A stretch of 64,000 bases of DNA from an uncultured Erysipelotrichaceae bacterium (GCA_902794075.1 CADBGE010000001.1:208137-272136), one strand, 5' to 3'; counted from the first letter of the stretch, positions 19,789 through 36,903 are shown. The notes: generated by a model not told the origin, from the letters alone. Numbers and translations are program-made.

Positions 19789-20418
19789 GTATAAATATCT
19801 TTTATTTAATGGAATCATTGACAGTAATTTATGAAATTCATTTTCAAGTTCATTGTTCGCAATTCCACATTTTTTATAAATTTTTAACAGATCAGAACCA
19901 AGCTTAATTTTATAAAATATATTTTTACAGCTATTGGGTATGCATTGGTTATAGATTAATTCCTTTATTTTTATATGATAATTAATTGATTCATACAAAA
20001 TTTTTGATGTATGTATTTCGCCGTTATAATAATAAGTTATTTCTTTAACTAATAAATTATTTTTATATTCTTTTTTATCATCTAATATTTTTTTTGTTTT
20101 GTTACAGATATCAACAAATAAATATTGTTTTTGTATATTGGATAATATTTGTTTAATCACATTATTTAAATACTTAAAAACATCGTTCAATTCACCCTCA
20201 TCAACGAGTTCCAAATTTTCATTATGTAAAACAATAATGTCTAAATCTTTATTTATGTTTCTTTTAACATCACGTAAATTATAAAATGGCTCATTATAAA
20301 GTAATGAGCCAACTAATACAAAACAATATTTATCTTTAAAATATTTAGAAACATTTTCATATATATGTATATAGATATTAAATCTACTGTTATTAATTCT
20401 ATCGTCCATCATATTCAA
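19783..20418 (-). CDS. Hypothetical protein, weak nucleotidyltransferase-like motif
   Basis: 211 aa. VLVGSLLYNEP...DLDIIVL loosely fits the GS...D.D pattern of Pol-beta-type nucleotidyltransferases. Convergent 6-nt overlap with the helicase stop. Confidence 0.45.
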   Translation of the reverse strand: MNMMDDRINNSRFNIYIHIYENVSKYFKDKYCFVLVGSLLYNEPFYNLRDVKRNINKDLDIIVLHNENLELVDEGELNDVFKYLNNVIKQILSNIQKQYLFVDICNKTKKILDDKKEYKNNLLVKEITYYYNGEIHTSKILYESINYHIKIKELIYNQCIPNSCKNIFYKIKLGSDLLKIYKKCGIANNELENEFHKLLSMIPLNKRYLYL

Positions 20419-22822
20419 TATAATTAACTAACTGAACAATTTTTGTTGTTTCATATGTATCATCAAAAGTAATTGTAATATTACTTTCATATTTAAAAAT
20501 TGCATCGTTTTGAGTATGACCATTATGCCACAAATTATCAATTTTTTCTGTATCACTCCCACTTAAATTATCGTATATATCATTCCATGTTGGAAATATC
20601 TTAGCACCGTATCCATCTACATAATCTTTTATAGTTATTTCAGACATAGTATTTAAGCATAATTGTATATTGTCAAAATACAAATTATCCCATTCTCCAT
20701 TTACAGTTGGATTAGCAAAATCATTTGATGAACTACCTCTATAATAAGTTTGAAAATGAATAGTTTTTATTTTAACAGGCACGGAAAAATTTATTACTAT
20801 TTTATGATGTTCTAACGTATTAATTATATCTGAAACATCATCGTCTTCAATTCTACGCCATTTATCATCACCATATTTTCTTATAGATTCATAAATATAT
20901 CCGTCTGTTACATTCACTGAACTATAATCAACCGCCGTAGGAGCAGTCATAGTTTCATCTGACATGATCCATGAAAGATTTCCTATTACTGTTCCAGTTC
21001 CAGAATAATTATCACGAATTTCACAATATAATGGATAATCTGTAGATTCACCATAATCAATGATGTTAGTATTATTATTTGAATGTATATCGCAACATAT
21101 ATAATATGACTTATGAGGCTCTAAAGTTACAGGTTTTAAATAGTTTGTAAGATCTGGTGAATAATTGGTTCCAACTGCTGTCATTGTCGTGGCGTCATAC
21201 ACTACAGGCTTAACGACATATGGGTTACTATTTGCACTTTCTCCAATAGGTTTACCAACAAAACATATATCTCTACTTTCTGAAGAAAAGTTAGTAAATT
21301 TTATATATTCTGATGATACAAATTCAATTATTGTTGGATCTTCATCATCAACATTATTATGACCTTCATATTTTCCTTGAGTCTTTTCAATATATATCAT
21401 TGGATTTACTGTATATTGAATACTACAAGAATTATCTCCAGCATATATTGTTGCTGTGTTTGTACCTGTTACATATGGATTTAATTTAACTATAATTCCC
21501 GACATTGCATAAACAGCATCATAAAGAAAGAGTGATGCGTTTTCTGATTCGCAAAAATCAGCAATATTATTTGTCGTTATTAATGATGGGTCAATCCATC
21601 CACCAGATGGATTAATTGTCCATAATGCATATATATCATCACCATACAAGAATTCAGTTTTACCATTATTTAATTTAGAATCTAATTGTAATGACATTGA
21701 GTTAATGTCATATATAGATGTAAAATCAAATTCTTTACGTATACAGTCTAAACCGTATGGATACTCTGATATGTTGCCAGGATCTACCCATTGTTCAAAA
21801 TTAATTATACAATGACCTTTTAAATCAGGAAGATTTGCGAAATATCTAAAAAGTGTTTTAGTTGGATAGTTCGTTTTATAATTTGCAACAAGATTGTTAT
21901 CTGAAAAACTATTTGAAACTATTTGCAATTTGGTTTCAGAAGTTTTTAATCGCGGATTACAGTTTGAAAAGTTAAAGAAGTCCGTTCCATCTAATAATTC
22001 ATCTTCTTTACGGGCATAAACGTATGAAACTGATTCATATCCTCTAACACATCCACCGGTATTACCAGACTGACTACTAGGAAATGATACTGTACTAATT
22101 GTGTATGAATAATCAGAATTTACAGTTATGTCATTATAGCTATAAGTATTTTCACCACTAGAATTATTTGGAACTACTGGGGTAAATCTTAAACCCTGTG
22201 TTGCCCACTTATTAGTACCATCAGTTGTTCCTACACTAAAAGTATGTCCATAAATATTATCTGTACCGAATACTAAATTATCAATATTACCTGATGCAAC
22301 TTCTTCAGAAATGTCAATCAATAAATATGTTATATTATTATTTTGTTTTTTATATTGTATTATAGATAAAGAATCTGAATATGATGTTACATCTTTTATT
22401 GTAACATTGCTTGGAGAAATAGTTGCATAAAAATTTAAATCATGATTAGCCTGATTAATTAATGTTAAATTATTATAATTTAAATGTATTTGTTTAATGC
22501 TGCCAATTGTTTCCCCATACGGAAAAACGCTTATGTCAGTTGCTGCAACAGTTCTAGTAATAATTTTAGTTTTTGCAGTTATTAATTCAATAGGCACAAG
22601 CCGTTTATTTTCATATTGACCATTAACAGATAAATATCCAATTGTGATAGTACCGTCTCCTCCAGAATCAGTTTCAACATTAACAGAATTAATAGTTTCA
22701 TATGTTAGACACCGATATGAATCATCATTATAATAATGTGTATTCCACCAATCCGAAAAAGTGGCATTTTCAAGATGTTTAATTAAAGTTCTTATTTTTG
22801 AAACGGTATTTATTTCTCCCAT
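20399..22822 (-). CDS. Large tail / receptor-binding structural protein (807 aa)
   Basis: First gene (distal end) of the minus-strand fibre cassette. Ser/Thr/Asn/Tyr-rich beta composition. Confidence 0.65.
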   Translation of the reverse strand: MGEINTVSKIRTLIKHLENATFSDWWNTHYYNDDSYRCLTYETINSVNVETDSGGDGTITIGYLSVNGQYENKRLVPIELITAKTKIITRTVAATDISVFPYGETIGSIKQIHLNYNNLTLINQANHDLNFYATISPSNVTIKDVTSYSDSLSIIQYKKQNNNITYLLIDISEEVASGNIDNLVFGTDNIYGHTFSVGTTDGTNKWATQGLRFTPVVPNNSSGENTYSYNDITVNSDYSYTISTVSFPSSQSGNTGGCVRGYESVSYVYARKEDELLDGTDFFNFSNCNPRLKTSETKLQIVSNSFSDNNLVANYKTNYPTKTLFRYFANLPDLKGHCIINFEQWVDPGNISEYPYGLDCIRKEFDFTSIYDINSMSLQLDSKLNNGKTEFLYGDDIYALWTINPSGGWIDPSLITTNNIADFCESENASLFLYDAVYAMSGIIVKLNPYVTGTNTATIYAGDNSCSIQYTVNPMIYIEKTQGKYEGHNNVDDEDPTIIEFVSSEYIKFTNFSSESRDICFVGKPIGESANSNPYVVKPVVYDATTMTAVGTNYSPDLTNYLKPVTLEPHKSYYICCDIHSNNNTNIIDYGESTDYPLYCEIRDNYSGTGTVIGNLSWIMSDETMTAPTAVDYSSVNVTDGYIYESIRKYGDDKWRRIEDDDVSDIINTLEHHKIVINFSVPVKIKTIHFQTYYRGSSSNDFANPTVNGEWDNLYFDNIQLCLNTMSEITIKDYVDGYGAKIFPTWNDIYDNLSGSDTEKIDNLWHNGHTQNDAIFKYESNITITFDDTYETTKIVQLVNYIEYDGR

Positions 22823-22840
22823 ATTTTAAAACATTAATTC

Positions 22841-23785
22841 TTATTTTTTCTCAAGTTCTTTAATTCTTTCCTCTAATTCAGTAATCTTATTTATTAATTT
22901 ACTAACAACTAATGACAAAGAAGAATTATAATCAACAGATTTAACATTATGTATTTCTCCAGAATTATCGGAAGATGTAGTCACAAGTTCAGGATGCATT
23001 TTTTCTAAGTCTTGAGCAACAAATCCATACATATGAGAACCATTCATATTGAACTCATACATATTTATTTCGTCAATGTTCGCAATCTTTTCAATATCCG
23101 TTTTTAATCTTTCATCAGAATTCTCCATGAATTTTGGAGCAACAATCTGACCAGAAGTGCTGTTGGCTTCTAAAGATATTTTATTATTTGGACCAATTCT
23201 AACATAAGTATATGATACACTACTGCTGACATTAAAGTGTAATCCATCAACATTAGTATAATCATTTATAGATATACCTGATCTTGACAAAATTGCTTCA
23301 GGGTATGTTTGTATAAATCCTTGTGAACCACCAATTGTAATAGATCCTTTGTTCCATCCTATGGAAGAATTAGTTATATGTAATCCATCTATATTTCCTG
23401 AATATTGACTCCAATGAATTTCTTGGTCAGTATCGACTTTATTTGAACCGCTCTTTGAAACATAATTAGATATTTGAGAAGAAGTTGATTCAACAGCATC
23501 AAGGCGAGAATTAAGAACAGCCAATCCAATTGCTGTTGTCTGTTCATTCTCAATCATCTTTGTGTATATAACTTTATTCTGAACAGGATTAGTTGAAGTA
23601 TTGTTTAGTGTATCGTCAACTTTAACATGTCCATATGCTGTAGTTGATGCATGAATATTATGATCATTCCATGCTTTTGTAAGAGATTTAGTTGTGCCAT
23701 TATCATTAATTTGAACTAATCCTGCATAAGTAATTGGAAGCAATATGTCACTACCATTTTGTAATTTAATTGGATATGTTGCCAT
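22841..23785 (-). CDS. Tail fibre with C-terminal intramolecular chaperone (peptidase S74-like) domain
   Basis: N-terminal IKL.NG..LLPIT anchor motif shared with the other fibres. C-terminus ...SDERLKTDIEKI....MYGFVAQDLEKMHPELV... matches the endosialidase-type self-cleaving chaperone domain. Confidence 0.75.
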   Translation of the reverse strand: MATYPIKLQNGSDILLPITYAGLVQINDNGTTKSLTKAWNDHNIHASTTAYGHVKVDDTLNNTSTNPVQNKVIYTKMIENEQTTAIGLAVLNSRLDAVESTSSQISNYVSKSGSNKVDTDQEIHWSQYSGNIDGLHITNSSIGWNKGSITIGGSQGFIQTYPEAILSRSGISINDYTNVDGLHFNVSSSVSYTYVRIGPNNKISLEANSTSGQIVAPKFMENSDERLKTDIEKIANIDEINMYEFNMNGSHMYGFVAQDLEKMHPELVTTSSDNSGEIHNVKSVDYNSSLSLVVSKLINKITELEERIKELEKK

Positions 23786-23837
23786 GAATAAATATTGTGA
23801 TTGTTTGTAAAAAACTAATTTTATTTTATATATAAAA

Positions 23838-23931
23838 ATATTTTCCTAAAATGATTTCGTGTATCTATAATAGACGATATATTTTCCTAAAATGATTTCG
23901 TGTATCTATAATAGACGATATATTCTTAAAA
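23838..23931. repeat. 41-bp direct tandem repeat (2.3 copies) in an intergenic region
   Basis: ATATTTTCCTAAAATGATTTCGTGTATCTATAATAGACGAT at 23838-23878 and 23879-23919, plus a partial third copy. Lies upstream of the fibre gene start at 23785 (minus). Confidence 0.85.
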
Positions 23932-23932
23932 A

Positions 23933-24763
23933 TTATCCTCCAGTAAATTCTACTGAAGTTGAACTAAAGTACATCTTATTTGTTACTTTATCTATAAACC
24001 CGTATCTTTGTAATGCTAAATTGCCAGGCATTAAACGAATTGGAACAAGATAATGAGCAATATCATTATTTTCTGGAAGGCCATTCCAAATCTTTACATA
24101 ATATATTCTACCTTTAAAGGGGACGTCTAAGTCAGACTTTGTATTTGATGATGTAGCAGTTGTATTTCCTCCACCTCGAGCAAACAAAAATAAATCCTTT
24201 GCAATAGTTGCATTATAATATGCTGAACCATTACCTGTTTTTTTTATTATTCCATTATGACGAATATCCCATGCTCCGTTTGTGTCATTAATGTTCCAAT
24301 TAAATACATAATTATTATTTATATTAATTGGATTCATTATACTGACTGCTCCTGACTTATTTGTTCCAGATGTACCACCTGTTGCATAATCATTATTTAA
24401 CGCCATATACCCATATAATCTATTTGGATTTTTTGCATCATTATAGCTAAACTTTAATAAACATAATGTATGATACCCAGTAGATCTATATGCTTGTCCA
24501 AAAACACTTTCTTGTGCGCGCTCTAAATCATTAAATTTATATTTTATTTCTAAACTTTGTTTACCTATGTTTAAAGGAATTTTAGTATTTATGTATGAAT
24601 TACCGTCACCTTCTATGTAGTTCACATATTCAAACATATTATCTATATGTAAATCATTATCATCTAAACATGTACTAGCAATTGGAAATAATTCATTACG
24701 TGTCATAATGAATTTATTTTTAAGATAATTTGCATGAAAATTAAATAATCTAAGATTTTTCAT
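23933..24763 (-). CDS. Receptor-binding protein with LamG/concanavalin-like lectin domain
   Basis: GRIYYVKIWNGLPENNDIAHYL... matches the LamG-type jelly-roll signature (vRiYNraLs..Ei). Confidence 0.6.
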   Translation of the reverse strand: MKNLRLFNFHANYLKNKFIMTRNELFPIASTCLDDNDLHIDNMFEYVNYIEGDGNSYINTKIPLNIGKQSLEIKYKFNDLERAQESVFGQAYRSTGYHTLCLLKFSYNDAKNPNRLYGYMALNNDYATGGTSGTNKSGAVSIMNPININNNYVFNWNINDTNGAWDIRHNGIIKKTGNGSAYYNATIAKDLFLFARGGGNTTATSSNTKSDLDVPFKGRIYYVKIWNGLPENNDIAHYLVPIRLMPGNLALQRYGFIDKVTNKMYFSSTSVEFTGG

Positions 24764-24804
24764 TTATTCTTATACATTTTTTAAAATTTTTTAAAAGTTA
24801 TAAT

Positions 24805-25692
24805 TTAGCCACCAATGAATATAGGTTCAGCTGGTTCTACAGATATAGCAGTTGGATCATTTTGTATTGTAGTACTATCTATTTGTGAAATATGTTCATT
24901 TATTTCAACACCGGATAAATTTTCATGAGTATGCCATGTATGATCTATAGTATCGTATAATCCGTATTGTCCGTCTGAATTATGTTTGCACGGAACTAAA
25001 TTATGAACAAGAACTCTATCATGATACATTTGAAGATGATGCAAGTATATCCATGATATATAAATAGCTGAATTTGATCCGAAATATCCATTAGTATTTT
25101 CAAAAAAACCTAATTTATTCCTGCTATACTGTTTAACAAATACATCATCTACATATAAATTAGCTGAATACTCTGTGGCACTTGAAGTTGATCTTGTAGT
25201 ATCAAATTTTAATACTTGTGGTTTTAATGGATCAGTTGATGCTAAAACAGTATTTATACCTATATTACCTTCAATTGAAAATAGTGTTTTTGAACCTGAT
25301 TGTGTTATACCGAAAACCCCACTAGTTTGTGCGTTACCAAAAAATTGGGATGCTGGACTGCTTCCACCTGTATTTCCAATTTTTGATTCTTGCCATGAAC
25401 ATTTTACAACCCATCTAATATGTGTTAATCCAGTATTTGATACCGCAAAACGACCTAATCCAGCCAATGAAGCAGTGTTATAAACATATCTGCATTTCGT
25501 GTATTCATCAGGAATTATGTCTGCTCCAAAGAATCCATTATTTTCTATATGGATATATTTACCATCATATGAATATGTATTAGTAGATGTATATGTAGAT
25601 ACTACAGGACATACATAACTCTGACGAATATTCAGATTTTCATTGGTATTTGCATTTGATAATGATGAATAATTAGATAATAAATATTTCAT
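24805..25692 (-). CDS. Putative tail fibre / receptor-binding protein
   Basis: Beta-rich and Gly/Ser/Thr/Asn-rich. Located within the fibre cassette. Confidence 0.6.
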   Translation of the reverse strand: MKYLLSNYSSLSNANTNENLNIRQSYVCPVVSTYTSTNTYSYDGKYIHIENNGFFGADIIPDEYTKCRYVYNTASLAGLGRFAVSNTGLTHIRWVVKCSWQESKIGNTGGSSPASQFFGNAQTSGVFGITQSGSKTLFSIEGNIGINTVLASTDPLKPQVLKFDTTRSTSSATEYSANLYVDDVFVKQYSRNKLGFFENTNGYFGSNSAIYISWIYLHHLQMYHDRVLVHNLVPCKHNSDGQYGLYDTIDHTWHTHENLSGVEINEHISQIDSTTIQNDPTAISVEPAEPIFIGG

Positions 25693-25714
25693 GTTTAGCT
25701 TATATATAAAATGT

Positions 25715-26362
25715 TTACTGTTGAGTTATTGTGATAGTTGGCTGTGTGATGTTTGAAAGTACCGTTAGTGTATTCGTAGGTGAAAATGTATGATTATGAT
25801 CTGGTATAGTAACAGTTTTATCTGGAATAGTAACTGAACATGATTGACCACCAACCGCAATTGTTTGTTCAGCTAATGTATATGTATATGATAATGTTGT
25901 TTCACTAGTTCCACCTGCTAAACCTAATGATGTATTATCAATGGTAACACTTATAGCATTATATTTTGTATATTTTAAATTAGAAACTGTTCCATTAATA
26001 TTTAGTGCAGGAATTGTTATGCTTTTTGTTCCTGTGGTTCCAGAAGCAGTGAATGATGCTAAAGTACCAGATAATGATTTACTTCCTATCGTTCCACCAG
26101 TTGTCTTATCGTATTTTGCTGTTCCACCACTAGCGGTTGCTCTATATGTTGGTATGGATGTTATATATCCAGCATCCTCTAATACTTCAACTCTATCATT
26201 AAGATCATTATATCCTGCAGCAGTTACTTCTTCATTCTCAAGAATTACATCCTTAACAGATTTAACCTGTCCATCAACAGACATTTGAACAACAGATGCA
26301 TCAGTTACTGGAATAAGAGTTACATTGTTGTTATCAGTTAGTTTTATGATTTTTGCGCTCAT
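25715..26362 (-). CDS. Tail fibre paralog (N-terminal anchor MSAKIIKLTDNNNVTLIPVTDASVVQ)
   Basis: Shares the IKL(T/K)...L.PvT.a.VvQ N-terminal motif with 22841, 27349, 30878 and 33903. Confidence 0.65.
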   Translation of the reverse strand: MSAKIIKLTDNNNVTLIPVTDASVVQMSVDGQVKSVKDVILENEEVTAAGYNDLNDRVEVLEDAGYITSIPTYRATASGGTAKYDKTTGGTIGSKSLSGTLASFTASGTTGTKSITIPALNINGTVSNLKYTKYNAISVTIDNTSLGLAGGTSETTLSYTYTLAEQTIAVGGQSCSVTIPDKTVTIPDHNHTFSPTNTLTVLSNITQPTITITQQ

Positions 26363-26468
26363 TTATACATATAAAAATTTTTGATATATTTAAAAATAAA
26401 ATATTCATAAAAAAATCCCTATCGTAAGATAAGGATATTATATATTTCATTATAATTGTGTTAATGAC

Positions 26469-27242
26469 TTATAAACCTAAATTAAACCTTTTATTGTCAA
26501 TCATTTGATTATGTCGCATTTCATCAGCAGATAATAATCTATTATAAATTCTTATAGAATATATATGTCCAACAAATTTTGTACCACTATTGTTTAACTC
26601 TCTGTTACCTATAGTATTTATTGTGTTATTACCTCCCCAATAATTACTTGCTATGCTTGTTCTATTGTTACTAAAATCTAATATACCAGCATTTTTGTTT
26701 ATGCTTATAGTATGCGGTACAGTGTTATATAAATCTGATGAAAATACATGTTCTGCATTTGCAACACTTCCGCCAGCATTTGGGTTAGCAGGATATATGC
26801 ACGCTCTACGTCCATTATCAAAGTATCCATAGGAAATTGATCCTACGGTCTTTTGTAGGAATAATAAACATCTTTTATTAGCTACAGTTGGCTTATATGT
26901 AATTTCAATCGTTGAAGATAAGTAATTAAAATCAATAGTGTCAGAGTTTTTAAGATACCCATTAGCATCTGACGTAAATATAAATGAATTATTGTCAGAA
27001 GTTATAGAACTATTGTTCTTTGTAAAGACATGCCCACCAATCAAATCTGTCCAAGCATTTGCCGTAGACCCCTTATCTATGCCGTCCAAATGAAATACTA
27101 AACCATTCTCTATATAATTTCTACCGTATATAACTGACAAAGGATTTCTGACTGTTATCACAACTGGTAAACTTGACACTGCTGATGAAAGACTGTCTGA
27201 ATTCTTATCAGCTTCTGTATCGTATACTCTTAAATACTTCAT
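26469..27242 (-). CDS. Receptor-binding protein with LamG-like lectin domain
   Basis: C-terminal GHIYSIRIYNRLLSADEMRHN is a classic LamG-type motif. Confidence 0.65.
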   Translation of the reverse strand: MKYLRVYDTEADKNSDSLSSAVSSLPVVITVRNPLSVIYGRNYIENGLVFHLDGIDKGSTANAWTDLIGGHVFTKNNSSITSDNNSFIFTSDANGYLKNSDTIDFNYLSSTIEITYKPTVANKRCLLFLQKTVGSISYGYFDNGRRACIYPANPNAGGSVANAEHVFSSDLYNTVPHTISINKNAGILDFSNNRTSIASNYWGGNNTINTIGNRELNNSGTKFVGHIYSIRIYNRLLSADEMRHNQMIDNKRFNLGL

Positions 27243-27260
27243 AAATTACGTTTCGTTAAA

Positions 27261-27274
27261 TATAATTAAAAATA
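27261..27274 (-). promoter_or_regulatory. Recurrent promoter-like motif (minus-strand reading ...TTTTTAATTATA...)
   Basis: One of at least 6 near-identical ATTTTTAATTATAT(A) motifs 25-50 nt upstream of minus-strand ATGs (also near 29178, 33817, 39341, 45529, 50595). Confidence 0.4.
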
Positions 27275-27288
27275 TTAATCAATTATAT

Positions 27289-27326
27289 AAAAAATCCTCC
27301 AAACGCGCGCGTTTGGAGGATTTTTG
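27289..27326. terminator. Bidirectional rho-independent terminator
   Basis: AAAAAATCCTCCAAACGCGC|GCGTTTGGAGGATTTTT, a perfect GC-rich palindrome with A and T tracts. Downstream of fibre gene 27349-29148. Confidence 0.8.
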
Positions 27327-27348
27327 TAAATTATATTTAATATAATTT

Positions 27349-29148
27349 TTAGCTTATTGTTGCTGTAACTTGTGTAAGATCTGCTAAACTAATTGTTTGA
27401 GTAAATTGACTATCTGCAAATAAACTAAAATCATTTGTTGTATCAGGACCAATTTTAACTTTTAATCCACTATCATGTGGAGTTACTTTTATAGTTGGCG
27501 CAGAACCAGCTGTTACATGGCCTTGATCATCAACAGCAAATTTATATAATCCTTCTGTTTTTGTTTTTCCAGTATTAGCATGAGCAATTGTTAACTTATC
27601 TTTATCTGTTGTAGTTAATTGTATACCATTGCTTGGAACAAAATAAACTTTACTATTTGAACCACTTAAATTTAATTCATAATTTCCTGATGTTCCAGCG
27701 GTCTTATTAACAAATGCATGTGTTTGGTCTTGAGGAGTGTCAGTTGAATAAATATTAGCTGCAGTATATGCAGTAATATGACCGTATTCATTAATTGTTA
27801 AACCAGTAATTACTTTTTGCTTATTAGTGCTACCGGTTACATCCTTATCTGATGGAGTAACATTTGACACACTATGAGTATTATGATTAATGTGATTATT
27901 ACTTGAATCAATAGTTATTTCATTTCCACTATAATATAATGTATTCTTTGAATAAATATCAGCAGCAGTATATGATGTAACATGACCATAACTATTTACT
28001 GTAATACCTGTAATTACTTTTTGCTGTCCTGTTGTACCAGTTACATCTTTATTAGATGCTTGAGGATTACTTGTTCCTGCCGAAGTTGTTTCATGAGTAA
28101 TATGTACGTCATCTGCAAGTGTTTCATCTGTAACAACAATAGCAGTATTATCTGAAATAATTTTTATAGTTTTATTCGCCTTTGCAGAAGAATCACCTAA
28201 TTCATTCCAAGAATTGCCATTCCAAATATATTCTTTTTTATCTGCTCCAGCACCTGATAATACAATATCTCCATTTTTTGGAGTTATTGATTCATTATTA
28301 ATTGTTATAGGTTTAGTAGTTGCACCATCTGTTAATGTTGTAGATGTAACACCACGATAATTCATTGCAGAAATAACAAGACTGTCAGCATGTGCAATTG
28401 CTTCAGCCTTAGCTTTATCAATAGCATTTTGAGTAGGAACACTATAATGTTTAACATTATTCGCAGTAACAGATTCACCATTTGAACCAGACATTGTTAT
28501 TGTTTCACTCTTAAGAACATCTACAGAATATGTAGTTACCGCAACAGATTCAGCTGAACTTTTAGGGGTAATTGACGCTGAAGTTAACTTATGATCTTCA
28601 TCAGTTCCCCAATCAATAGTAGTTCCATTATATTTTAATACTTGACCTGATGCAGTTGGAGCATTAATAAATCCAGTTGTATCAGCTCCAGTTTGATATG
28701 CTATTTTTTTAGCTCCACCACCCTTAATATTAGTTGATTTGTTAACTGTTGGAGATAAAGATGTACCTAATGGAGTAGATGATAATGTAATATCTCCAGT
28801 AAAACCAATATTATGATTATGATCATTTTTTGCAATATTATAACCACTTATAACAAATTTATTTGCGGTAGTATTATCAATACTAATATATGCTCCACCT
28901 TCAATTGAAACTGATCCTGTTGCATTATGTGCACCGCTTAATGAAATATTATATGAATTTGCAGCTTTAGTTAATGAAATGCCTGTTGTTATATGATCAT
29001 TTACAGAACCAGCTGTTATACCAATTGCTTCTTGTACAGATGTATATGAATTTGTTCCATAATCATATTGCACAGCAGCTGCAACAGTTACTGGCACATA
29101 TGTTAAGGTGCCGTTAGTTAATTTTATTATTTTTGTATTTGTTGCCAT
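27349..29148 (-). CDS. Long tail fibre paralog (599 aa)
   Basis: N-terminus MATNTKIIKLTNGTLTYVPVT matches the anchor motif. The body is Thr/Ser/Gly/Asn-rich with internal repeats (KDVTGTTGQQKVITGITVNSYGHVTSYTAADIYS occurs twice). Confidence 0.7.
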   Translation of the reverse strand: MATNTKIIKLTNGTLTYVPVTVAAAVQYDYGTNSYTSVQEAIGITAGSVNDHITTGISLTKAANSYNISLSGAHNATGSVSIEGGAYISIDNTTANKFVISGYNIAKNDHNHNIGFTGDITLSSTPLGTSLSPTVNKSTNIKGGGAKKIAYQTGADTTGFINAPTASGQVLKYNGTTIDWGTDEDHKLTSASITPKSSAESVAVTTYSVDVLKSETITMSGSNGESVTANNVKHYSVPTQNAIDKAKAEAIAHADSLVISAMNYRGVTSTTLTDGATTKPITINNESITPKNGDIVLSGAGADKKEYIWNGNSWNELGDSSAKANKTIKIISDNTAIVVTDETLADDVHITHETTSAGTSNPQASNKDVTGTTGQQKVITGITVNSYGHVTSYTAADIYSKNTLYYSGNEITIDSSNNHINHNTHSVSNVTPSDKDVTGSTNKQKVITGLTINEYGHITAYTAANIYSTDTPQDQTHAFVNKTAGTSGNYELNLSGSNSKVYFVPSNGIQLTTTDKDKLTIAHANTGKTKTEGLYKFAVDDQGHVTAGSAPTIKVTPHDSGLKVKIGPDTTNDFSLFADSQFTQTISLADLTQVTATIS

Positions 29149-29177
29149 TTATATCTTAAACAATATTTTTTTTATTT

Positions 29178-29190
29178 TATAATTAAAAAT
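29178..29190 (-). promoter_or_regulatory. Promoter-like ATTTTTAATTATA motif upstream of gene start at 29148
   Basis: Same motif family as 27261. Immediately follows terminator 29194-29217 in the direction of transcription. Confidence 0.4.
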
Positions 29191-29193
29191 AAA

Positions 29194-29217
29194 ATGGGTG
29201 GGTGCGCACCCACCCAT
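29194..29217. terminator. Rho-independent terminator (palindrome ATGGGTGGGTGC|GCACCCACCCAT)
   Basis: 12-bp perfect inverted repeat, followed on the minus strand by TTTTATTTTT. Downstream of 29245-30834. Confidence 0.75.
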
Positions 29218-29244
29218 AATTATATTGTTATTTTATTATATCTA

Positions 29245-30834
29245 TTATGCTTCTGGATTAAATATGTTTGCAACTTCACCATTCCATGATGCAACCTGTT
29301 CATATTGTAATTTAGAAACATTTCCAAGAGCGCTATCATCAACAGTTAATGTAACATTATTACCGTCTTTTGCAGCAGAAATCTTAACATATGTATTGTC
29401 ATTGTCGCCAATAATACTGGTTACAGCATTTCCACCATTATCCGAAATCTTATTGGCAATCTTATTTAATGCATCATGTAAATTAGTTGGAAGATTTCCG
29501 CTGCCAAGTAATTTATAAAGACCTGATTCAGAATTAAATGTAGTAGTCTTAACATTTTCATCAGTTAAACCAATATATGAAGCAGCTGTTAACTTACCAT
29601 CAGTCTCTGTTACACCCGTCATTACATAGCTGAAATTGTTTTCTGTCTTAGCAGCAATTTCAGAATCAAGACCAGCAATTAAATCACCAGTATATGCGTT
29701 AGCATTAGCTTCAGCGGTATTAATAGCAGATTGAACACCACTTAACTTAATACCATCAGATTCAACTGTCAAGAATTCTTCAGAACTAGCGTCTAAACCA
29801 ACAGCAATTGTAGAACCAGTTTTTACAATACCATTTCCACGTTCTGCTTGTGTAAAGAATTTAGATATATCAATCTTAGTTATAGAATACGTGCCATTTG
29901 CAAGTTTATGAACAAAATTCATACTTTGTGCGTCATCAACACTATTCTTTGTTACAGTACCAGTTGTAGCATCAACCGTATCGTTATTTGCGCCAAGATA
30001 TACTTCTACTAATGTGCTGTCTGCTGGTATATCAATAGTTTCTGCAACAGCAGTTGCAGTGCCTCCATTTATTGATTGCATTAATTGGTATCTTGCACCT
30101 ACAGTTGCAGGTAGATCAGTTGTTACTTTATTAATAGTATAACGAGCAGCATCACCAACAGCAGCGTCAATCTCAGTTTGTAAATGTTCAAGTGTTGCCT
30201 GTGTACTTAATGTTGTAGCAGGACTATCACCAGCAATATTAAATTTATTATTACTGTTATCTACATCAACATATTGTGCGTCAATATTGCCTGGAGTTGC
30301 AGTAACAAGACCGTCAGTTTCAGAAACAGAAATAATTGCCTTTCCTGCTGAAGTCATTTCAGATTTATCAAGTCCTTGAATAGCATTTGTAATTTGTGTT
30401 TGAACACTGCCTTCACCATCACCGGCAAGACCTGCTAATGTTGCTTGAAGACCTTCAATAGCAGATTTAACGTTACTGTTACCATTGTATGAAACAACAG
30501 AAGCATCAAGCCAAATTTGATTATATGAAGTTAATTTACCGGCAGCTTCAGTTATGCTTCCAAATACATATCCATTATCTGCTGTAATTGTAGAATTAAG
30601 ACCATTTATGGAATCACTAGTATATGATTTTGCTGTTTCTAAATCACTATTACCCTTATTTAGTAAATATGTAAGAGCATCTTGAACACTTAACGCATTA
30701 TCTACATTATATCCAGAAAATTTTGTTTTATCGGCATTAGCAAGTTCAATCAATTTAGCTTTAGAAATAGGAAGAATTTGTTCTGTTCCATTATTAAGAA
30801 GAACTGCTAATGAAGCATTATATTTATTTCCCAT
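29245..30834 (-). CDS. Tail fibre paralog (529 aa)
   Basis: N-terminus ...VLLNNGTEQILPISKAKLIEL is an anchor-motif variant. Ala/Thr/Gly/Asn-rich fibre-like body. Confidence 0.65.
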   Translation of the reverse strand: MGNKYNASLAVLLNNGTEQILPISKAKLIELANADKTKFSGYNVDNALSVQDALTYLLNKGNSDLETAKSYTSDSINGLNSTITADNGYVFGSITEAAGKLTSYNQIWLDASVVSYNGNSNVKSAIEGLQATLAGLAGDGEGSVQTQITNAIQGLDKSEMTSAGKAIISVSETDGLVTATPGNIDAQYVDVDNSNNKFNIAGDSPATTLSTQATLEHLQTEIDAAVGDAARYTINKVTTDLPATVGARYQLMQSINGGTATAVAETIDIPADSTLVEVYLGANNDTVDATTGTVTKNSVDDAQSMNFVHKLANGTYSITKIDISKFFTQAERGNGIVKTGSTIAVGLDASSEEFLTVESDGIKLSGVQSAINTAEANANAYTGDLIAGLDSEIAAKTENNFSYVMTGVTETDGKLTAASYIGLTDENVKTTTFNSESGLYKLLGSGNLPTNLHDALNKIANKISDNGGNAVTSIIGDNDNTYVKISAAKDGNNVTLTVDDSALGNVSKLQYEQVASWNGEVANIFNPEA

Positions 30835-30877
30835 AATTTTTTATAATTTATTAATATATTTTTTCTTAATTTATTTT

Positions 30878-32563
30878 TTAAGGATTTGTAGTTTCTGAAG
30901 TAATACCGTGCATCTGCAAGAAACCTTCAGTTACACCATCAGTTGATGTTCCAGAATCATATTTAAGTGAGCTAGTTAAACTAACAACACCATTAGAAAC
31001 AGTTCCAGCAGTTCCATCAAGAGTTACACCAGTTATGTGTGATACAGAAGCAGTCTCAAGTGCCTCAACTTTAGTCTCAAGAGTATCAACACGATCTTCA
31101 AGAGCACTTACCTTAGTATCAATTTCATTAGTAACAGTTCCAAGAATGCTCTTAATAGAAACTACAGAATAAGACTTAGCATTATCAACCTTCCAAATAA
31201 ATACCAAAGCAGGAAGTTCTGCAAGTTCTTCAGTGGATAATGTCATACCACTTGGAAGTTTGGTTGCAACATCACTTTGAGAATTTATATAGTATACAGA
31301 ATCCAAGAACTGATCTTTAGGAATATTAATAGTTCCAATTGTTTCAGAATTCTGAGTTAGTGTATAAACCTTTGCAAAGTCTGTACTATCTGATGGAGTT
31401 ACAGTAACTTTATACTTACCATCAAGCGCAGTTGCATTAGATGCAGCTGCAAGTTCTTTAATCTTACTATCATATTCATCATAGAACTCTTGAACTGTCT
31501 TTTGTCCATCAGTATGCTCAACTGGAGTACCTTCTACAGTAACTGTATAACTATAAGTAACATTAATGTTATCTGCGTCTAATCCACCTTCTATTTGTGA
31601 AGGCTGAATCATACCAGAGATATTGTTTGCATATGTAGTTACACCTGTAAGATCTAACTTAGATTCATCAATCGTTAAACCAGAACTTGTTTCCTTTAAT
31701 TTTCCATCAGAATTTAAAATTAAACCAACTGATACTGCACCATTCTTTTCTATTCCGTCGCCAGTACCTTGAACAAGTATTGTATTAGGTGTTGATGATG
31801 CAACTGAATTAACTGCTCCTTTTACGGCATTATCAATTGTTCTGTCTAATGCATTTACCTTAGTTTCTAATGCATCAAGTGCACCATCTACATTAGTAAC
31901 ACTATTAAATATAGTTGTTGTATTAGAAGGTTCAAATGAAACAGCTGACGCGTCTATTGAAAGATTTCCTTCAGGGAATAAATCATTAACCTTTGCATAA
32001 GCATATTCAAGGTCAGATTTAGCATCAGTTAAATCACTTTCCAATGTACCTACTCGGCTTTCTAATGAATCAATATCAGATTCTGCTGTAGTAACTCGTG
32101 TTGTTAATCCGTCAACATTACCATTAATTGTTGAAATGCTAGAATTCAGTTCTGTTTTATTATTGTCTATCTTTGTATCAATAGCCTCTATAACCTTTTG
32201 AACTGATACATAAGATATTCCATCAGGTCCTCCATTATAATCATTTTCAAGATCACTAAAATAAGAACTATTATCAAATACTATATATGAAGCATAATCT
32301 GGTTTTTGAACGTATGATGAAAAATAAGCAAATGCTTCATTAATAGAATCAGTAAGTGTATTAAATCGTGTATCCTGATTTGTTAATGTTGAATTAATGT
32401 CATCGATATAGCTGTTGACATTATTTAAATCACCACTTAAAGTATCAAGATAACTTCTTACGTCTATACCATTTTTATATTCTACATAGTACGATAACGT
32501 AATTGGTAACAACGCATTACCTTGATTGTCTTTCAGTAATATATTTTTATAGTTTGTTGCCAT
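30878..32563 (-). CDS. Tail fibre paralog (561 aa)
   Basis: N-terminus MATNYKNILLKDNQGNALLPITLSYYVEY. Coiled-coil-like segments (LESRVGTLESDLTDAKSDLEYAYAKVNDL). Confidence 0.65.
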   Translation of the reverse strand: MATNYKNILLKDNQGNALLPITLSYYVEYKNGIDVRSYLDTLSGDLNNVNSYIDDINSTLTNQDTRFNTLTDSINEAFAYFSSYVQKPDYASYIVFDNSSYFSDLENDYNGGPDGISYVSVQKVIEAIDTKIDNNKTELNSSISTINGNVDGLTTRVTTAESDIDSLESRVGTLESDLTDAKSDLEYAYAKVNDLFPEGNLSIDASAVSFEPSNTTTIFNSVTNVDGALDALETKVNALDRTIDNAVKGAVNSVASSTPNTILVQGTGDGIEKNGAVSVGLILNSDGKLKETSSGLTIDESKLDLTGVTTYANNISGMIQPSQIEGGLDADNINVTYSYTVTVEGTPVEHTDGQKTVQEFYDEYDSKIKELAAASNATALDGKYKVTVTPSDSTDFAKVYTLTQNSETIGTINIPKDQFLDSVYYINSQSDVATKLPSGMTLSTEELAELPALVFIWKVDNAKSYSVVSIKSILGTVTNEIDTKVSALEDRVDTLETKVEALETASVSHITGVTLDGTAGTVSNGVVSLTSSLKYDSGTSTDGVTEGFLQMHGITSETTNP

Positions 32564-32601
32564 ATTTTTTTGTAATATATATTATGTATTTTAGTTTTTT
32601 A

Positions 32602-33783
32602 TTATTCTTGTGACTGTATAAATGCATCACTTAACTTATAATCTTTTCCAAATGTATCGTATTCTGAATACTTACTTACATATGTATATATATTAGTTAC
32701 TTCAGTATTCATATCATTTCTAAGTTGTGCAATATCATCTGCATTATTATTTATTAATGTTGTTAAGTCGTTCTTTGCATCACTAATACTATTGTCAATA
32801 TAGTTCTTGACATTTGACATGTCACCAACCCAATTTCCGTTCTCATCTATGAACTTAAACTTACTTTCAGCATTTGCAAGAACAACTTCATTGTTTACTA
32901 CAAGTTGTCCAAGTTCATTAATATATATAGATCTATTATCTACTATCTCAGACGTATTTACACTAACTTTATTGTCATCACTAATGTTTATACCAAAACC
33001 TGCTGTATATGAATGTATATACGATAATATATTAGTTACATCTATTGTATGCTGAGCAGCAAGTTCATCAACAACTCCAGACAATTCACTATTAAGTTGG
33101 ATTAAGTATTCTCGAAGTTGAGTTAGCTTATCATCAGTTTCATTTGATAACTTTTCAATGTTTGACGAAGTATATGCGTATGCTAAATCATTATTTCCAG
33201 ATACTATTCCTTGAAGTTGCGCAACTTCATTATCTATTTCAGTTAACTTATCTGATGTTTCACTAAATAATGAATAAGCATATTCATATGACAAATCCTG
33301 TGCCTCATTTATGTCACGTGATAATTCATAATGCTTTTGAGCAGATCTTTCTTCAAGATCATTTACTAATGACTGAGATCGTGAATATGAATATTCTAAG
33401 TTTCTTTCTATTAATTCATTGGCCTGATTTATTTTATTAAATGCATCAGATAGACCACTAGTTATTTGAGAATTAAGAATAGCAAGTTCATCATCTAAAT
33501 TCTTAGTGTTGTCAATAAGAACATATGCTGATGAAGTTATTGGATATAATTTTCCATCTTCATTATTATTTATCATCACAGGAGTACCTGCTCCAGTTGA
33601 TGCGAAAATATCGTCAATCTTATCAAATCTTGGAAAATTCTTGGTAAATTCATATGAAGTATGAAGACTATCTATGATTTCATTGATTTTTCCAACTGTT
33701 GCATTATATTCATATGCATGAAGTATATTACCACGATACTTTATTGGAATGTTAAGATGTTCAATATATGTTAATTCTGCCAT
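32602..33783 (-). CDS. Fibre-associated coiled-coil protein (paralog of 35573-36226)
   Basis: Shares the N-terminal motif NIPIKYRGNILHAYEYNATVGKINEIIDSLH with TIPRKFKGDTLHALEFNDVVDKINEIRRHLN of 35573. Confidence 0.6.
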   Translation of the reverse strand: MAELTYIEHLNIPIKYRGNILHAYEYNATVGKINEIIDSLHTSYEFTKNFPRFDKIDDIFASTGAGTPVMINNNEDGKLYPITSSAYVLIDNTKNLDDELAILNSQITSGLSDAFNKINQANELIERNLEYSYSRSQSLVNDLEERSAQKHYELSRDINEAQDLSYEYAYSLFSETSDKLTEIDNEVAQLQGIVSGNNDLAYAYTSSNIEKLSNETDDKLTQLREYLIQLNSELSGVVDELAAQHTIDVTNILSYIHSYTAGFGINISDDNKVSVNTSEIVDNRSIYINELGQLVVNNEVVLANAESKFKFIDENGNWVGDMSNVKNYIDNSISDAKNDLTTLINNNADDIAQLRNDMNTEVTNIYTYVSKYSEYDTFGKDYKLSDAFIQSQE

Positions 33784-33816
33784 ACAGTTAAGTGATATGA
33801 AACTATTTTATATATA

Positions 33817-33832
33817 ATATAATTAAAAATAA
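33817..33832 (-). promoter_or_regulatory. Promoter-like ATTTTTAATTATAT motif upstream of start at 33783
   Basis: Motif family as above. Downstream of terminator 33852-33877 in the direction of transcription. Confidence 0.4.
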
Positions 33833-33851
33833 TTTAGAATGAAAGCATAAA

Positions 33852-33877
33852 AAATCCTGGTCTTAAGACCAGGATTT
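33852..33877. terminator. Rho-independent terminator (AAATCCTGGTCTTAAGACCAGGATTT)
   Basis: Perfect 11-bp stem. On the minus strand it is followed by TTTTTTAT. Downstream of fibre 33903-35525. Confidence 0.75.
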
Positions 33878-33902
33878 GTTCATTTATGTTAAATTAGAAT
33901 TT

Positions 33903-35525
33903 TTAGAGAGATACATCATCAATATTGGTGAAACCTGTAGCTTCCTCAAAATATACACCAGCAGCAAGTACTTCATCAACAGTATGAGTAGTTGCAGATG
34001 TATCAGAACCAATCTTGTAAGTATTTGAAGTATTAATCTGATTAGCATTAACTGTAACTTCACCGTTTGCATTAGGTGCTTGGTTATTTACTTTCTTAAC
34101 TGCAGCGCCGTTAAGTGTATCGATGCGAGCTGCAAGTTTTCCTAATGTGTTGTTATCTGTATTAGCATTACCAAGTAATTCTGTCTTAACTGCAGCAGCA
34201 GCTCCCGCAGCTTCAACTTCAACAGAATCAACGGCAGTAATCTTACCATCAACTTCAGTAACACCACTTACAACGAATGTACCATTATGCTGTGCTGTAC
34301 CGGTTGCATCAAGATCTGCATCAAGTGCTTCAATAGCAGTTTGGATTTGAGTAGCAACTGAACCACCATTACCAAGTTCACCTTCAATACGTGCGATTGC
34401 CTGTGCAACAGTTTCCTCAGTAACATTGTTTTGAGCATCAGCTTCACGATAAATAATCTTGGACGCAGCAATCTTACCAATTGTCGCTGTAATCTTATGA
34501 TTTGCATCCTGTGATAATGTTACTTCAGCGGTAGATTCTACTGAGTTATATTCAATAAGTGAAGCAACATCAATATAGAACGGATTACCATTTTGAATTG
34601 TCAACTTAATGAATGTACCATCATTGTTCTCACCATCTTTATATACAATTTCACCACTAACTGCAACTAAGTCCTTAGGAATATTGATAGTACCTATAGA
34701 ATTACCGCCTTGAGAAATTGTGTACACTTTAAGAACATCACCTGAGCCAGCTGCTTCAGTTAATGATACAGTGTAACTTGATTTAAGAGCATTAATTTCA
34801 CTAGTTAATGCAGCATCAGCAGCCTGATAAGCAGTAATGATTGCACTATCAGCAGCGGTATAAGAAGAAATAATAGCAGTATCTGCTTGAGTATAACCAG
34901 TGATGATTGCAGCATCAGCGTTTTCATAAGCAGTAATGATAGCAGAATCAGCCTCTTCAGAAGCAGTCTTTGTAATATAAGCAGCCTCAATAGCATTTAC
35001 CTTATTTGTAAGAGTTTGTAAACCTTCTGAAGTTGCAATAGAACCAAGATCTACATAGCGACCGTTTGTCTCATCACTTGCAACAGTAACAAACGTATCA
35101 TTCAACTTAACTTTTGATAAGAACTTGCCATCAGCATAATCTTTAGCATTTTGCTCAGCAGCATTTGCTTTTGTTTCAGCCCATGCATAAGAATTTGCTT
35201 GAGCAGCAGCAGCATCAGCAGCAGATTGAGCATATGCAAGTGCAAGATATGCAGTGTCTTGTGCATCTACATAATTAGCAACAGCACGTTGATTTTCAAG
35301 AACTCCTTCAAGAGCATTCTTTATTTTGGTTAAATCAGCATCCCAAGCTGCTTTGTTAGTGTTGACATAACTTACAAGAGCCTGCAATGCGTCTTGTACT
35401 GATTTGGAGGTCCAGCCACCATCAATGTCTAAACCTGTAATTGCAGATACTTGTACAAGTTGTGATCTGGTCAACGGTAGTACAACACTACCTTGACGAT
35501 CTTTAAGTTTTATAACTTTTGCCAT
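33903..35525 (-). CDS. Tail fibre paralog with intragenic 10-aa tandem repeat
   Basis: N-terminus MAKVIKLKDRQGSVVLPLTRSQLVQV. Contains 5 copies of AD(S/A/T)AII(T/S).Y..., encoded by a 30-bp DNA tandem repeat at about 34806-34960. The C-terminal 'NIPKD' beta module is shared with 30878. Confidence 0.7.
   Translation of the reverse strand: MAKVIKLKDRQGSVVLPLTRSQLVQVSAITGLDIDGGWTSKSVQDALQALVSYVNTNKAAWDADLTKIKNALEGVLENQRAVANYVDAQDTAYLALAYAQSAADAAAAQANSYAWAETKANAAEQNAKDYADGKFLSKVKLNDTFVTVASDETNGRYVDLGSIATSEGLQTLTNKVNAIEAAYITKTASEEADSAIITAYENADAAIITGYTQADTAIISSYTAADSAIITAYQAADAALTSEINALKSSYTVSLTEAAGSGDVLKVYTISQGGNSIGTINIPKDLVAVSGEIVYKDGENNDGTFIKLTIQNGNPFYIDVASLIEYNSVESTAEVTLSQDANHKITATIGKIAASKIIYREADAQNNVTEETVAQAIARIEGELGNGGSVATQIQTAIEALDADLDATGTAQHNGTFVVSGVTEVDGKITAVDSVEVEAAGAAAAVKTELLGNANTDNNTLGKLAARIDTLNGAAVKKVNNQAPNANGEVTVNANQINTSNTYKIGSDTSATTHTVDEVLAAGVYFEEATGFTNIDDVSL
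34806..34960. repeat. 30-bp period intragenic tandem repeat (about 5 copies) within fibre gene
   Basis: Repeating GCAGCATCAGC...GTAATGATNGCA units are visible directly in the sequence. They encode the decapeptide repeat ADxAIIxxYx. Confidence 0.7.
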
Positions 35526-35572
35526 AGTATTTTTATAATTTTATTATATATATTTCTATTATTTAAAAAATA

Positions 35573-36226
35573 TTAATCATGATATTCACCATCATATAGA
35601 TCATCATTATTGTCATATATGATTTTTTGTTCAACTGTTGGTTCAGTTCTTACATCATAATCAAATGTAAGAGTCGTGTCATTTATATGAGTGTATAAAC
35701 GTGTGTATGATTCATCAGTATATTCTTTTGCTTGTTCTACAGATGATTGAACTGCAGCTGTATATGAATTTTCTATTCTATCATCTACAGTATTTAATTC
35801 ATCCTTCATATCGTTTATTTCATTACCATATATACCTAAAGTTTCACCAATTGAATCAAGATTAGATAATATATCATTAATGTTTGAACTATTTGTAGAA
35901 ATTTTTTCATCTGATGAATTAAGCTTAATATTTATTTCATTTAATTCATCAAGTATTGATTTTGTGGAATTTTCATTAATAGGTATATTATCTGCTCTTA
36001 ATGACAATTGAACATTATTTATCTTATCCAATATATATGAAGTTGTTTCTGTTATTGTGTCGCGGACTGGTCCATTTAAATGTCTGCGTATTTCATTTAT
36101 CTTATCTACAACATCATTAAATTCTAATGCGTGTAGTGTGTCACCCTTAAATTTTCTAGGTATAGTTAAACTATCTATAAAGGTCATTGTTTCATTGATA
36201 TTGTCATATATATCGTTCATACACAA
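35573..36226 (-). CDS. Fibre-associated coiled-coil protein (paralog of 32602-33783)
   Basis: See 32602-33783. It opens the fibre cassette in the direction of transcription. Confidence 0.6.
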   Translation of the reverse strand: MCMNDIYDNINETMTFIDSLTIPRKFKGDTLHALEFNDVVDKINEIRRHLNGPVRDTITETTSYILDKINNVQLSLRADNIPINENSTKSILDELNEINIKLNSSDEKISTNSSNINDILSNLDSIGETLGIYGNEINDMKDELNTVDDRIENSYTAAVQSSVEQAKEYTDESYTRLYTHINDTTLTFDYDVRTEPTVEQKIIYDNNDDLYDGEYHD

Positions 36227-36408
36227 TTATTACAAGCAAATATTATAAGTTATATATTTAATAATAAATTTAGTTTAGTTAAAATTACAAAAAACAATAA
36301 AAATGGATCATCTCATTTCACAATGGGACAATCCAATTAAAATGTGTTTCTTTATTTTAATATTTCCTTGTTCTTCTAACTATTCGTTTCACAACGAAAA
36401 TTTATTGT

Positions 36409-36846: not shown

Positions 36847-36903
36847 AATATATTATCTTTATTTATATATATAAAAATATAAACTTTTTCTAAAAATCAA
36901 CGG

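Follow-up and report, generated by a model that had tools for sequence, protein, structure and literature searches.

What is encoded by a run of twelve equally oriented genes that is placed between replication-type genes, i.e. those for a UvsW-like helicase and SSB? We analyzed a stretch of 64,000 nucleotides from an uncultured Erysipelotrichaceae bacterium (GCA_902794075.1 CADBGE010000001.1:208137-272136; AT-rich, ~30% G+C), hereafter the window, in which positions 20399-36226 are filled by 12 minus-strand open reading frames (ORFs), all recovered under the standard code (Table 1; genes are denoted by their lowest coordinate). An initial annotation had described the region as a cassette of twelve tail-fibre or receptor-binding paralogs, a reading that was largely right in spirit and overstated in detail. 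We consider it fairly probable that the region, hypervariable and with multiple fibres, serves host recognition, that it contains a new family of docking modules and that it resides in an uncultivated megaphage of ~400 kb. The pattern is that of modular receptor-binding fibres because it combines a constrained N-terminal module, many unrelated bodies, recurrent Peptidase_S74 (S74) ends and hypervariability between conserved flanks. From this we infer virion docking, position specificity, receptor binding and a tail location, with docking through the N-terminus being suggested by analogy and by conservation.

An N-terminal module in six of the twelve proteins

The relationships among the twelve proteins were determined by all-against-all BLASTP. 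The cluster is made up of: six module-bearing putative fibres, one coiled-coil pair, one protein with a lectin fold (26469) and three proteins (23933, 24805 and 20399) without demonstrated kinship to the others, so that 'twelve paralogs' was too wide a description. In BLASTP, 20399 and 24805 had no match to the rest of the cluster and all that 23933 and 26469 share is a weak C-terminal motif; local iterative searches revealed no link between 23933, 24805 and 26469. The coiled-coil proteins 32602 and 35573 are paralogues, as had been proposed (2e-8, 30% identity over 180 aa), and a 40-residue internal segment is common to 30878 and 33903.

A shared N-terminal motif had been listed for 22841, 25715, 27349, 29245, 30878 and 33903, and exactly these six carry it. 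In a leave-one-out test, in which a profile made from five members was searched against the 1138 six-frame ORFs of the window, each left-out member ranked straight after the training five and first among the non-members, with E-values of 1.6e-4 to 0.012 for five members and of 0.64 for 29245 (best unrelated ORF 0.5-2.3). With a profile enriched with outside homologues all six were retrieved at 7.6e-28 to 3.4e-8, the latter value belonging to 29245, and the next best match in the window, an internal look-alike in 32602 (aa 79-138), was not significant (E 2.6). The module comprises 35-60 residues. It opens with a short strand and a turn of the form D/N-x-x-G, which are followed by the strand L-L-P-(I/V)-T, by x-A-x-x-V-Q and by a variable loop; a helix of the form K-S-V-x-D-x-L then leads into a coiled coil. 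The loop and helix beyond the V-Q strands extend the motif past what had been listed. The paralogues in the window are merely 28-42% identical over their first ~50-65 residues, and each position therefore has its own conserved version of the module.

We searched 1.84 billion cluster representatives with a profile of the first ~60 residues and recovered 147 of them at E ≤ 1e-3 (37 at ≤ 1e-10), which puts the family at ~147-150 clusters. The matches start at residue 1 almost always, in proteins of 68-1299 aa, and the sequences fall into subtypes that correspond one-to-one with the six window genes. Beyond residue 80 the bodies of 103 members form 20 single-linkage clusters. The only recurrent globular Pfam domain is Peptidase_S74, found at the end of 11 of the 87 full-length members, and one of these 87 has a podovirus tailspike galactose-binding-like domain. 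The module itself has no match in Pfam, no PHROG family is shared across 66 module sequences, and its profile retrieved nothing significant among PDB sequences (trimeric viral coiled coils at E 0.4-2.5). Its consensus gave nothing at E ≤ 1 in a tblastn search of 50,697 deposited phage records, its alignment found no relatives in an IMG/VR pattern scan, and there is no counterpart in 185,579 GTDB genomes. Judged by these searches, the module is a new, previously unnamed protein-module family.

The fibre identity of 22841 is directly supported by its domain content. A Peptidase_S74 domain (PF13884), the intramolecular chaperone that had been proposed for this protein, is present at residues 223-268 of 314 (38 bits with a cut-off of 22, E 2.1e-9), and nine of the eleven PHROG families matched by the protein are labelled tail fibre or tail protein. 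The cleavage site of Peptidase_S74 is characterized by a catalytic Ser...Lys motif, S-D-x-R-x-K, and an SDERLK motif (predicted cleavage site) is found at residue 223. For the other five proteins a fibre identity rests on association, by way of the S74-ended members of the family.

Conserved flanks and remodelled fibre bodies in relatives

We recovered versions of the locus that have the helicase, SSB and small genes of the window at their borders. In these syntenic relatives the flanking genes are 62-98% identical to those of the window. Within 14 orthologue pairs the identity is 54-97% for residues 1-35 and 22-83% for the rest of the protein, and the N-terminus is the best conserved part in every pair, which argues for selection. 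In L030, with flanks of 89-98% identity, the identity of 20399 is 80% and an insertion after the module brings the S74 fibre to 382 aa. The gene order is unchanged in L031 (215/294/253/S74/777 aa), with 80% identity for 25715, 56% for 24805 and 51% for 23933; its S74 fibre (576 aa) has ~250 extra residues directly after residue ~49, and the lectin gene is replaced by an unrelated 427-aa gene. The S74 fibres of relatives have insertions of 70 and 260 aa right behind the module. In L026/L027 (flanks 62-89% identical, helicase 86%) 30878, 29245 and 26469 are 36-46% identical, 27349 and 25715 retain their first 70-95 residues only, and the last four genes are swapped for unrelated ORFs of 683, 141 and 131 aa. 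L011/L012 (helicase 86% identical) follow the same pattern, with proteins of 1044-1183 aa at the position of 25715 and a different distal set, and in L008 (SSB 91% identical) 33903 is 64% and 35573 48% identical.

Followed gene by gene, the positional orthologues of 35573 are 48-52% identical in L008 and L012 and a 155-aa allele takes this position in L002 and L003; the L012 orthologue of 33903 keeps merely the first ~190-250 aa, and that of 32602 has 294 aa and 36% identity. Orthologues of 30878 are 36% identical overall and 80-83% in the first 35 aa, and those of 29245 are 46-52% identical. The first ~95 aa of 27349 are retained at 35-41% identity (the rest ~24%), the 1044-1299-aa proteins at the position of 25715 have only the first ~70 aa in common with it, and 24805 is missing from L011, L012 and L026. 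The homologue of 20399 follows the S74 fibre gene in both relatives that have it (L030, L031). Mosaic proteins occur as well: in one (P0035) the N- and C-terminal parts of 25715 flank an insert of ~300 aa, and in another (P0039) the tip and S74 domain of 22841 stand behind a different module subtype. At the syntenic position of L006 and L009 (helicase or SSB 58-59% identical) there is no such cluster.

The locus is therefore not invariant among relatives, and the proposed swapping of exchangeable modules agrees with the comparison: the flanks are conserved, the N-termini are kept, and the bodies diverge, are replaced, or gain and lose blocks of 70-300 residues. As far as sequences can tell, an N-terminus that is more conserved than the body and is joined to unrelated bodies places these proteins in the functional class of modular receptor-binding proteins (RBPs). 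The recombination hot spots that had been envisaged as well found no intragenomic substrate, as no DNA repeats between paralogues exist within 19500-37000; the lack of such repeats and of a template/variable pair points to exchange between genomes, and not to intragenomic homologous recombination or a retroelement.

Related contigs also encode proteins of only 90-93 aa (P0007-P0010; P0003, P0004), which consist of the module and either the last ~36 residues of the S74 chaperone (natural proteins of 93 aa) or a short stretch from the body of 25715. They have the appearance of alleles whose fibre body was lost through an in-frame deletion.

Proposed docking of replaceable fibres and its alternatives

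In a host-recognition locus of this kind the module would attach every fibre to the virion or to a further fibre, its six versions would be position-specific addresses, and everything downstream would be a replaceable shaft-and-tip unit. The module-less accessory genes amid the fibres (the lectin-fold protein, the coiled-coil pair and the 807-aa protein behind the S74 fibre) would probably supply binding tips, adaptors or assembly factors. The diversity between genomes would arise from recombination just downstream of the module, through which whole bodies are replaced, blocks are inserted or deleted, and tips become paired with other subtypes of the module. More tentatively, we propose that the module is an undescribed docking/joint domain of one gut/rumen megaphage clade, with six orthogonal address tags that would place six fibres at six positions and with internal copies that would act as fibre-on-fibre joints. 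If true, branching would here be achieved with no T4 gp10-like domain, and host-range engineering would have a natural plug-and-play system at its disposal.

Several observations weigh against the reading as a host-recognition locus. The proteins are known here from sequence and models, and the case for their place in the virion or on the tail is indirect; none of the scanned window genes was recognised as coding for a baseplate protein or any other structural protein of the virion, and a recognisable receptor-binding domain is absent in five of the six fibres. An acceptor or branching domain was not found either, as none of the 12 proteins matches a T4 gp10-like or other Pfam anchor family. 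By the leave-one-out test 29245 is a weak member. AlphaFold2 (AF2) modelled the module as a monomer in which an extended segment precedes a hairpin (residues 26-35) and a helix (36-64); this model is of moderate quality (pLDDT 73, pTM 0.39) and has neither a structural neighbour (best Foldseek E 3.5) nor a PDB sequence neighbour. Finally, six family members contain a second, internal copy of the module, so that the module does not require a free N-terminus and might serve as a structural joint instead of a docking peptide. Given these copies and its tendency to form a helix, the module may act as a joint or in trimerisation. One internal copy (in P0041) is, by eye, closely like the start of a separate subtype that begins with MATKGIK, and this resemblance suggests a gene fusion or fission.

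The position between the UvsW-like helicase and SSB, outside a recognisable tail module, would also suit virion fibres that carry an attachment module and are not baseplate receptor-binding fibres, such as head, neck or whisker fibres, hair-like tail decorations (known from some jumbo phages), or fibres joined serially or in branches on one another. The internal copies are compatible with fibre-on-fibre joints, and six related addresses imply many equivalent sites. We nevertheless regard such roles as unlikely: S74 chaperones and lectin domains are characteristic of fibres and spikes that bind the host, and the C-terminal bodies turn over very fast when compared with the flanks, as receptor-binding parts would be expected to do. 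Somewhat lower still we rate the possibility that the module is a folding or trimerisation nucleus, or an assembly-chaperone tag, which would be conserved since fibre folding needs it and not for docking. The S74-ended fibres already hold a folding nucleus at their opposite end, and a generic nucleus is unlikely to keep six distinct versions that are each conserved at their own position across relatives, although the modelled hairpin leading into a long helix, the trimeric viral coiled coils as sole (non-significant) PDB sequence matches, the internal placement of some copies and the joining of module and terminal S74 coiled coil in the natural 93-aa proteins would all be in line with it. It is, lastly, very improbable that the shared start is a functionless duplication remnant, as adjacent genes on the same strand might suggest after tandem duplication but against which speaks that the N-terminus is the best-conserved part of every orthologue pair, or that the variation stems from a targeted mutator such as a diversity-generating retroelement, a candidate that is disfavoured since the window genes scanned include no reverse transcriptase, positions 19500-37000 hold no inter-paralogue repeats and no template/variable repeat pair, and the variation consists of modular replacement and insertion/deletion, not of clustered point changes.

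The multi-fibre reading can be compared with described systems. In phage RaK2 nine tail-fibre proteins are assembled via conserved N-terminal domains, and the C-terminal specificity domains are variable (PMC10253068). The window cluster resembles RaK2/phiK64-1 and the Ackermannviridae (CBA120 TSP1-4) in its many adjacent fibre/spike genes, in a modularity that permits domain swapping, and in at least one member with an autocleaving C-terminal chaperone (PMC10253068), here the S74 domain of 22841 with its predicted cleavage. However, RaK2, phiK64-1 and CBA120 rely on T4 gp10-like XD domains and on one organiser protein that bears a single, long anchor domain, whereas the module is much shorter and has no match in Pfam, PHROG or PDB, the cluster shows no evident organiser protein, and the tips are not recognisable beta-helix depolymerases; at the sequence level (Pfam/PHROG) the 12 proteins contain no gp10-like domain, unlike CBA120, RaK2 and KP32 RBP1. 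In KP32 RBP2 a conserved N-terminal peptide of 29 aa docks on RBP1; it is not needed for folding or enzymatic activity, is required for virion incorporation, and transferable to foreign tips (PMC13352976). The architecture suggested here, a short conserved start with an exchangeable body, is analogous, but there is no sequence similarity, and KP32 has one peptide on one branching domain where the window has six divergent versions per genome. The interleaved module-less accessory genes with signals of their own and the six positionally conserved module versions set the cluster apart from both RaK2 and KP32. The endosialidase-type S74 fibres and spikes are matched by 22841, with its SDERLK motif, and by the 11 of 87 family members that end in S74, yet the part that precedes the chaperone in 22841 is short (~220 aa) and without recognised enzymatic or beta-helix domain. 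Likewise, 26469 has the fold of concanavalin A (ConA)-like/LamG phage virion proteins (Laminin_G_3) and matches phage proteins so annotated as well as the Pan3 tailspike, but it is a stand-alone protein of 257 aa with its own promoter-like motif and terminator and not a fibre-end domain.

A conserved anchor with a variable tip is a well-established principle, and the advance is therefore incremental and not conceptual; the module family is the new part. To our knowledge, megaphages of such size have almost never been cultured. For one clade the locus provides a testable map of likely host-range genes, of the exchange junction just after residue ~60 and of the module that would need to be retained in tip swaps, and annotation resources could use the module family (~150 clusters) to mark fibre genes, all of which are 'hypothetical' at present.

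Predicted transcription units, individual proteins and phage context

The coordinates of the genes, repeats and putative regulatory signals are collected in Table 1.

Table 1. Genes, repeats, hairpins and promoter-like motifs of the cluster (positions in the window).
Feature	Position	Strand	Description
Gene 35573	35573..36226	-	215-217 aa coiled-coil protein; class-II paralogue of 32602; without module; first gene of predicted unit 1
Gene 33903	33903..35525	-	540-aa putative fibre; module ~35346-35525
11-residue (33-nt) repeat array in 33903	34810..34952	-	~4.3 copies; units ADxAIIxxYxx, aa 192-235
Putative terminator after 33903	33847..33877	-	11-bp GC-containing stem, then T run; -15.7 kcal/mol
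Motif TATTTTTAATTATA	33818..33831	-	35 nt upstream of 32602; 31 nt upstream of the L012 orthologue
Gene 32602	32602..33783	-	393-aa coiled-coil protein; class-II paralogue of 35573
Gene 30878	30878..32563	-	561-aa putative fibre; module ~32384-32563; coiled-coil segments; 40-aa segment as in 33903
Gene 29245	29245..30834	-	529-aa putative fibre; most divergent module copy, ~30640-30834
Putative terminator after 29245	29185..29217	-	-17.2 kcal/mol
Promoter-like motif	29178-29191	-	overlaps T run of the 29185..29217 terminator; 30 nt upstream of 27349
Gene 27349	27349..29148	-	599-aa putative fibre; module ~28969-29148; DHNH motif
Internal 111-nt repeat in 27349	27744-27854 and 27948-28058		
Putative terminator after 27349	27287..27322	-	13-bp stem; -19.1 kcal/mol; missed by consensus scanner
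Promoter-like motif	27261-27274	-	19 nt upstream of 26469
Gene 26469	26469..27242	-	257-aa stand-alone protein; modelled concanavalin A-like/LamG jelly-roll fold
Putative terminator after 26469	26407..26436	-	-9.7 kcal/mol
Promoter-like motif, one mismatch	26385-26398	-	23 nt upstream of 25715
Gene 25715	25715..26362	-	215-aa short putative fibre; the family's most typical module, ~26183-26362; DHNH near C-terminus
Gene 24805	24805..25692	-	295-aa protein without module
Gene 23933	23933..24763	-	276-aa protein
Perfect 41-nt tandem duplication	23838..23924	-	2.1 copies; in 147-nt spacer upstream of 22841
Gene 22841	22841..23785	-	314-aa fibre, supported by S74; module ~23606-23785; C-terminal Peptidase_S74 and following coiled coil
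Gene 20399	20399..22822	-	807-aa lineage-restricted protein; 18 nt downstream of 22841
Terminator-like hairpin	20281..20311	-	88 nt downstream of 20399, inside ORF 19783-20418; -13.2 kcal/mol
TATTTTTAATTATA copies outside the cluster	45531-45544, 50597-50610, 55521-55534, 57143-57156		
Predicted unit 1	35573-33903		
Predicted unit 2	32602-30878-29245		
Predicted unit 3	27349		
Predicted unit 4	26469		
Predicted unit 5	25715-24805-23933		possibly on through 22841-20399

The GC-rich terminators of the initial annotation were recovered: the window contains 18 terminator-like hairpins where 4.1 ± 2.1 are expected, and clean intergenic hairpins with T runs (-9.7 to -19.1 kcal/mol) follow 33903, 29245, 27349 and 26469. 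The hairpin downstream of 20399 is of uncertain role because it lies inside an ORF. With respect to the promoters that had been assigned to individual genes, sigma-70-like sites are not enriched in the window (122 vs 125), but a different motif, TATTTTTAATTATA, is: nine copies with at most one mismatch were found where 1.0 is expected (0 of 100 shuffles reach nine), four of them in the cluster. One copy is located within ~30 nt behind each of the four clean hairpins. The copies lie 17-49 nt upstream of start codons, that of a DnaK-like gene included, and since non-fibre genes are also preceded by it, the motif appears to be a general phage promoter-like element that is not specific for fibres. 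The orthologous junctions of L012, L026, L027 and L008 carry it too, despite the divergence of the coding sequences, and it is plausibly a phage promoter. The four terminators, each followed by the promoter-like motif, imply that the cluster is cut into at least five transcription units, in line with the independent expression that had been suggested. The 41-nt tandem duplication upstream of 22841 is followed by a promoter-like variant, AATATTTTTATATATAAAATA; L031 has one diverged copy of the 41-nt unit, and the duplication may be a recently duplicated regulatory element. A 392-aa protein encoded elsewhere in the window (14612-15790, minus strand; 74-98% identity in relatives) finds its match (1.1e-15) in a PHROG with the annotation RNA polymerase sigma factor; it could be the protein that reads the motif.

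LamG-like domains had been assigned to 26469 and 23933, and the assignment holds for the former. By itself, 26469 matches Laminin_G_3 of Pfam below the cut-off (20.2 bits with a cut-off of 27.6, E 7e-4); many of its 73 homologues carry PF13385, and the family profile matches the LamG-type PDB entry 4qvs at 3.7e-4. Its AF2 model (pLDDT 85, pTM 0.80) retrieved with Foldseek a trans-sialidase lectin domain (2.4e-8), the Pan3 tailspike (1.2e-6) and the lectin-like domain of BoNT Hc from the PDB, and phage/viral ConA-like proteins (1.2e-11) from BFVD, and at the level of the model a jelly-roll beta-sandwich lectin fold is thereby confirmed. By contrast, 23933 has no Pfam match, and when it was aligned to the 26469 family with hhalign just 26-28 C-terminal residues were covered (E 2.5e-4 to 4e-3, probability 8-43%), so that it is only possibly lectin-like. 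For 24805 there is no Pfam, PHROG or profile relationship and no detectable relative of known fold; 20399 has no Pfam, PHROG or PDB match and only 5 clusters (74-100% identity) among 5.8 billion proteins. Word-indexed searches for homologues brought up nothing but close relatives, for 20399 as well as for the module. The repeat array of 33903 is real, with a unit of 11 residues (33-nt period) and not the decapeptide initially noted; by eye, the orthologues from L008 and L012 have a similar run, which is shorter in L012. PDB sequence searches with 33903, 27349, 20399 and a 3155-aa neighbour returned nothing significant.

TAA is the stop codon in 11 of the 12 ORFs and TAG in 20399. The ORF of 35573 has a TTG start at 36226 and an in-frame ATG at 36220 that leads to a 215-aa product, as called in the source contig. 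Recoding of stop codons at apparent gene boundaries was rejected because the fibre ORFs are intact under table 11 and because of these TAA stops. Lak phages are alternatively coded (PMC8346664), and the DnaK-like gene of the window (48632-50548, minus strand) resembles theirs, with 53% identity to the DnaK of Prevotella Lak megaphages; in contrast to Lak, the window genes read through under the standard code. A DnaJ with all three Pfam DnaJ domains, the DnaK-like protein and an RtcB-type RNA ligase are encoded at 45577-46650, 48632-50548 and 51814-53034 (all minus strand).

The sequence of 33903 was found exactly on 14 metagenome contigs. Of the collection blocks that were searched, eight comprise contigs of 0.2-1 Mb; one such contig measures 400,026 bp, and the longest in the cluster tables 400,076 bp. 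The sample labels (STEW19, XIEF21) and the relatives from JGI suggest, by their names only, animal-gut or rumen material. In 50,697 deposited phage genomes the UvsW-like helicase has no match above 30% identity and megablast with the whole region found no match, which means that the lineage is absent from the deposited phages; the sole tblastn match of 33903 is a 109-aa segment in Faecalibacterium phage FP_Brigit. An IMG/VR scan with 27349 and a genome scan of GTDB (185,579 genomes) gave no relatives, the latter thus giving no prophage or host clue.

Some neighbouring genes should be mentioned. The 3155-aa ORF (2418-11885, plus strand) has no Pfam, PHROG or PDB sequence match, and L026 has an ORF of 3263 aa at its corresponding end, in the same neighbourhood. 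Between 20399 and the helicase lies a 211-aa ORF with a TTG start (19783-20418, minus strand) and without family match; it looks like a strain-specific insertion because it is missing in L030, where the 20399 homologue abuts the helicase. A 1244-aa protein (40864-44598, plus strand) has a DEAD/ResIII helicase core and weak matches to BT4734-like N-terminal and Pyrin-like domains. Directly upstream of the cluster, a lysine-rich low-complexity protein of 145 aa is encoded at 36409-36846 (minus strand), and contigs with an identical 33903 have a called gene of 145 aa in this place.

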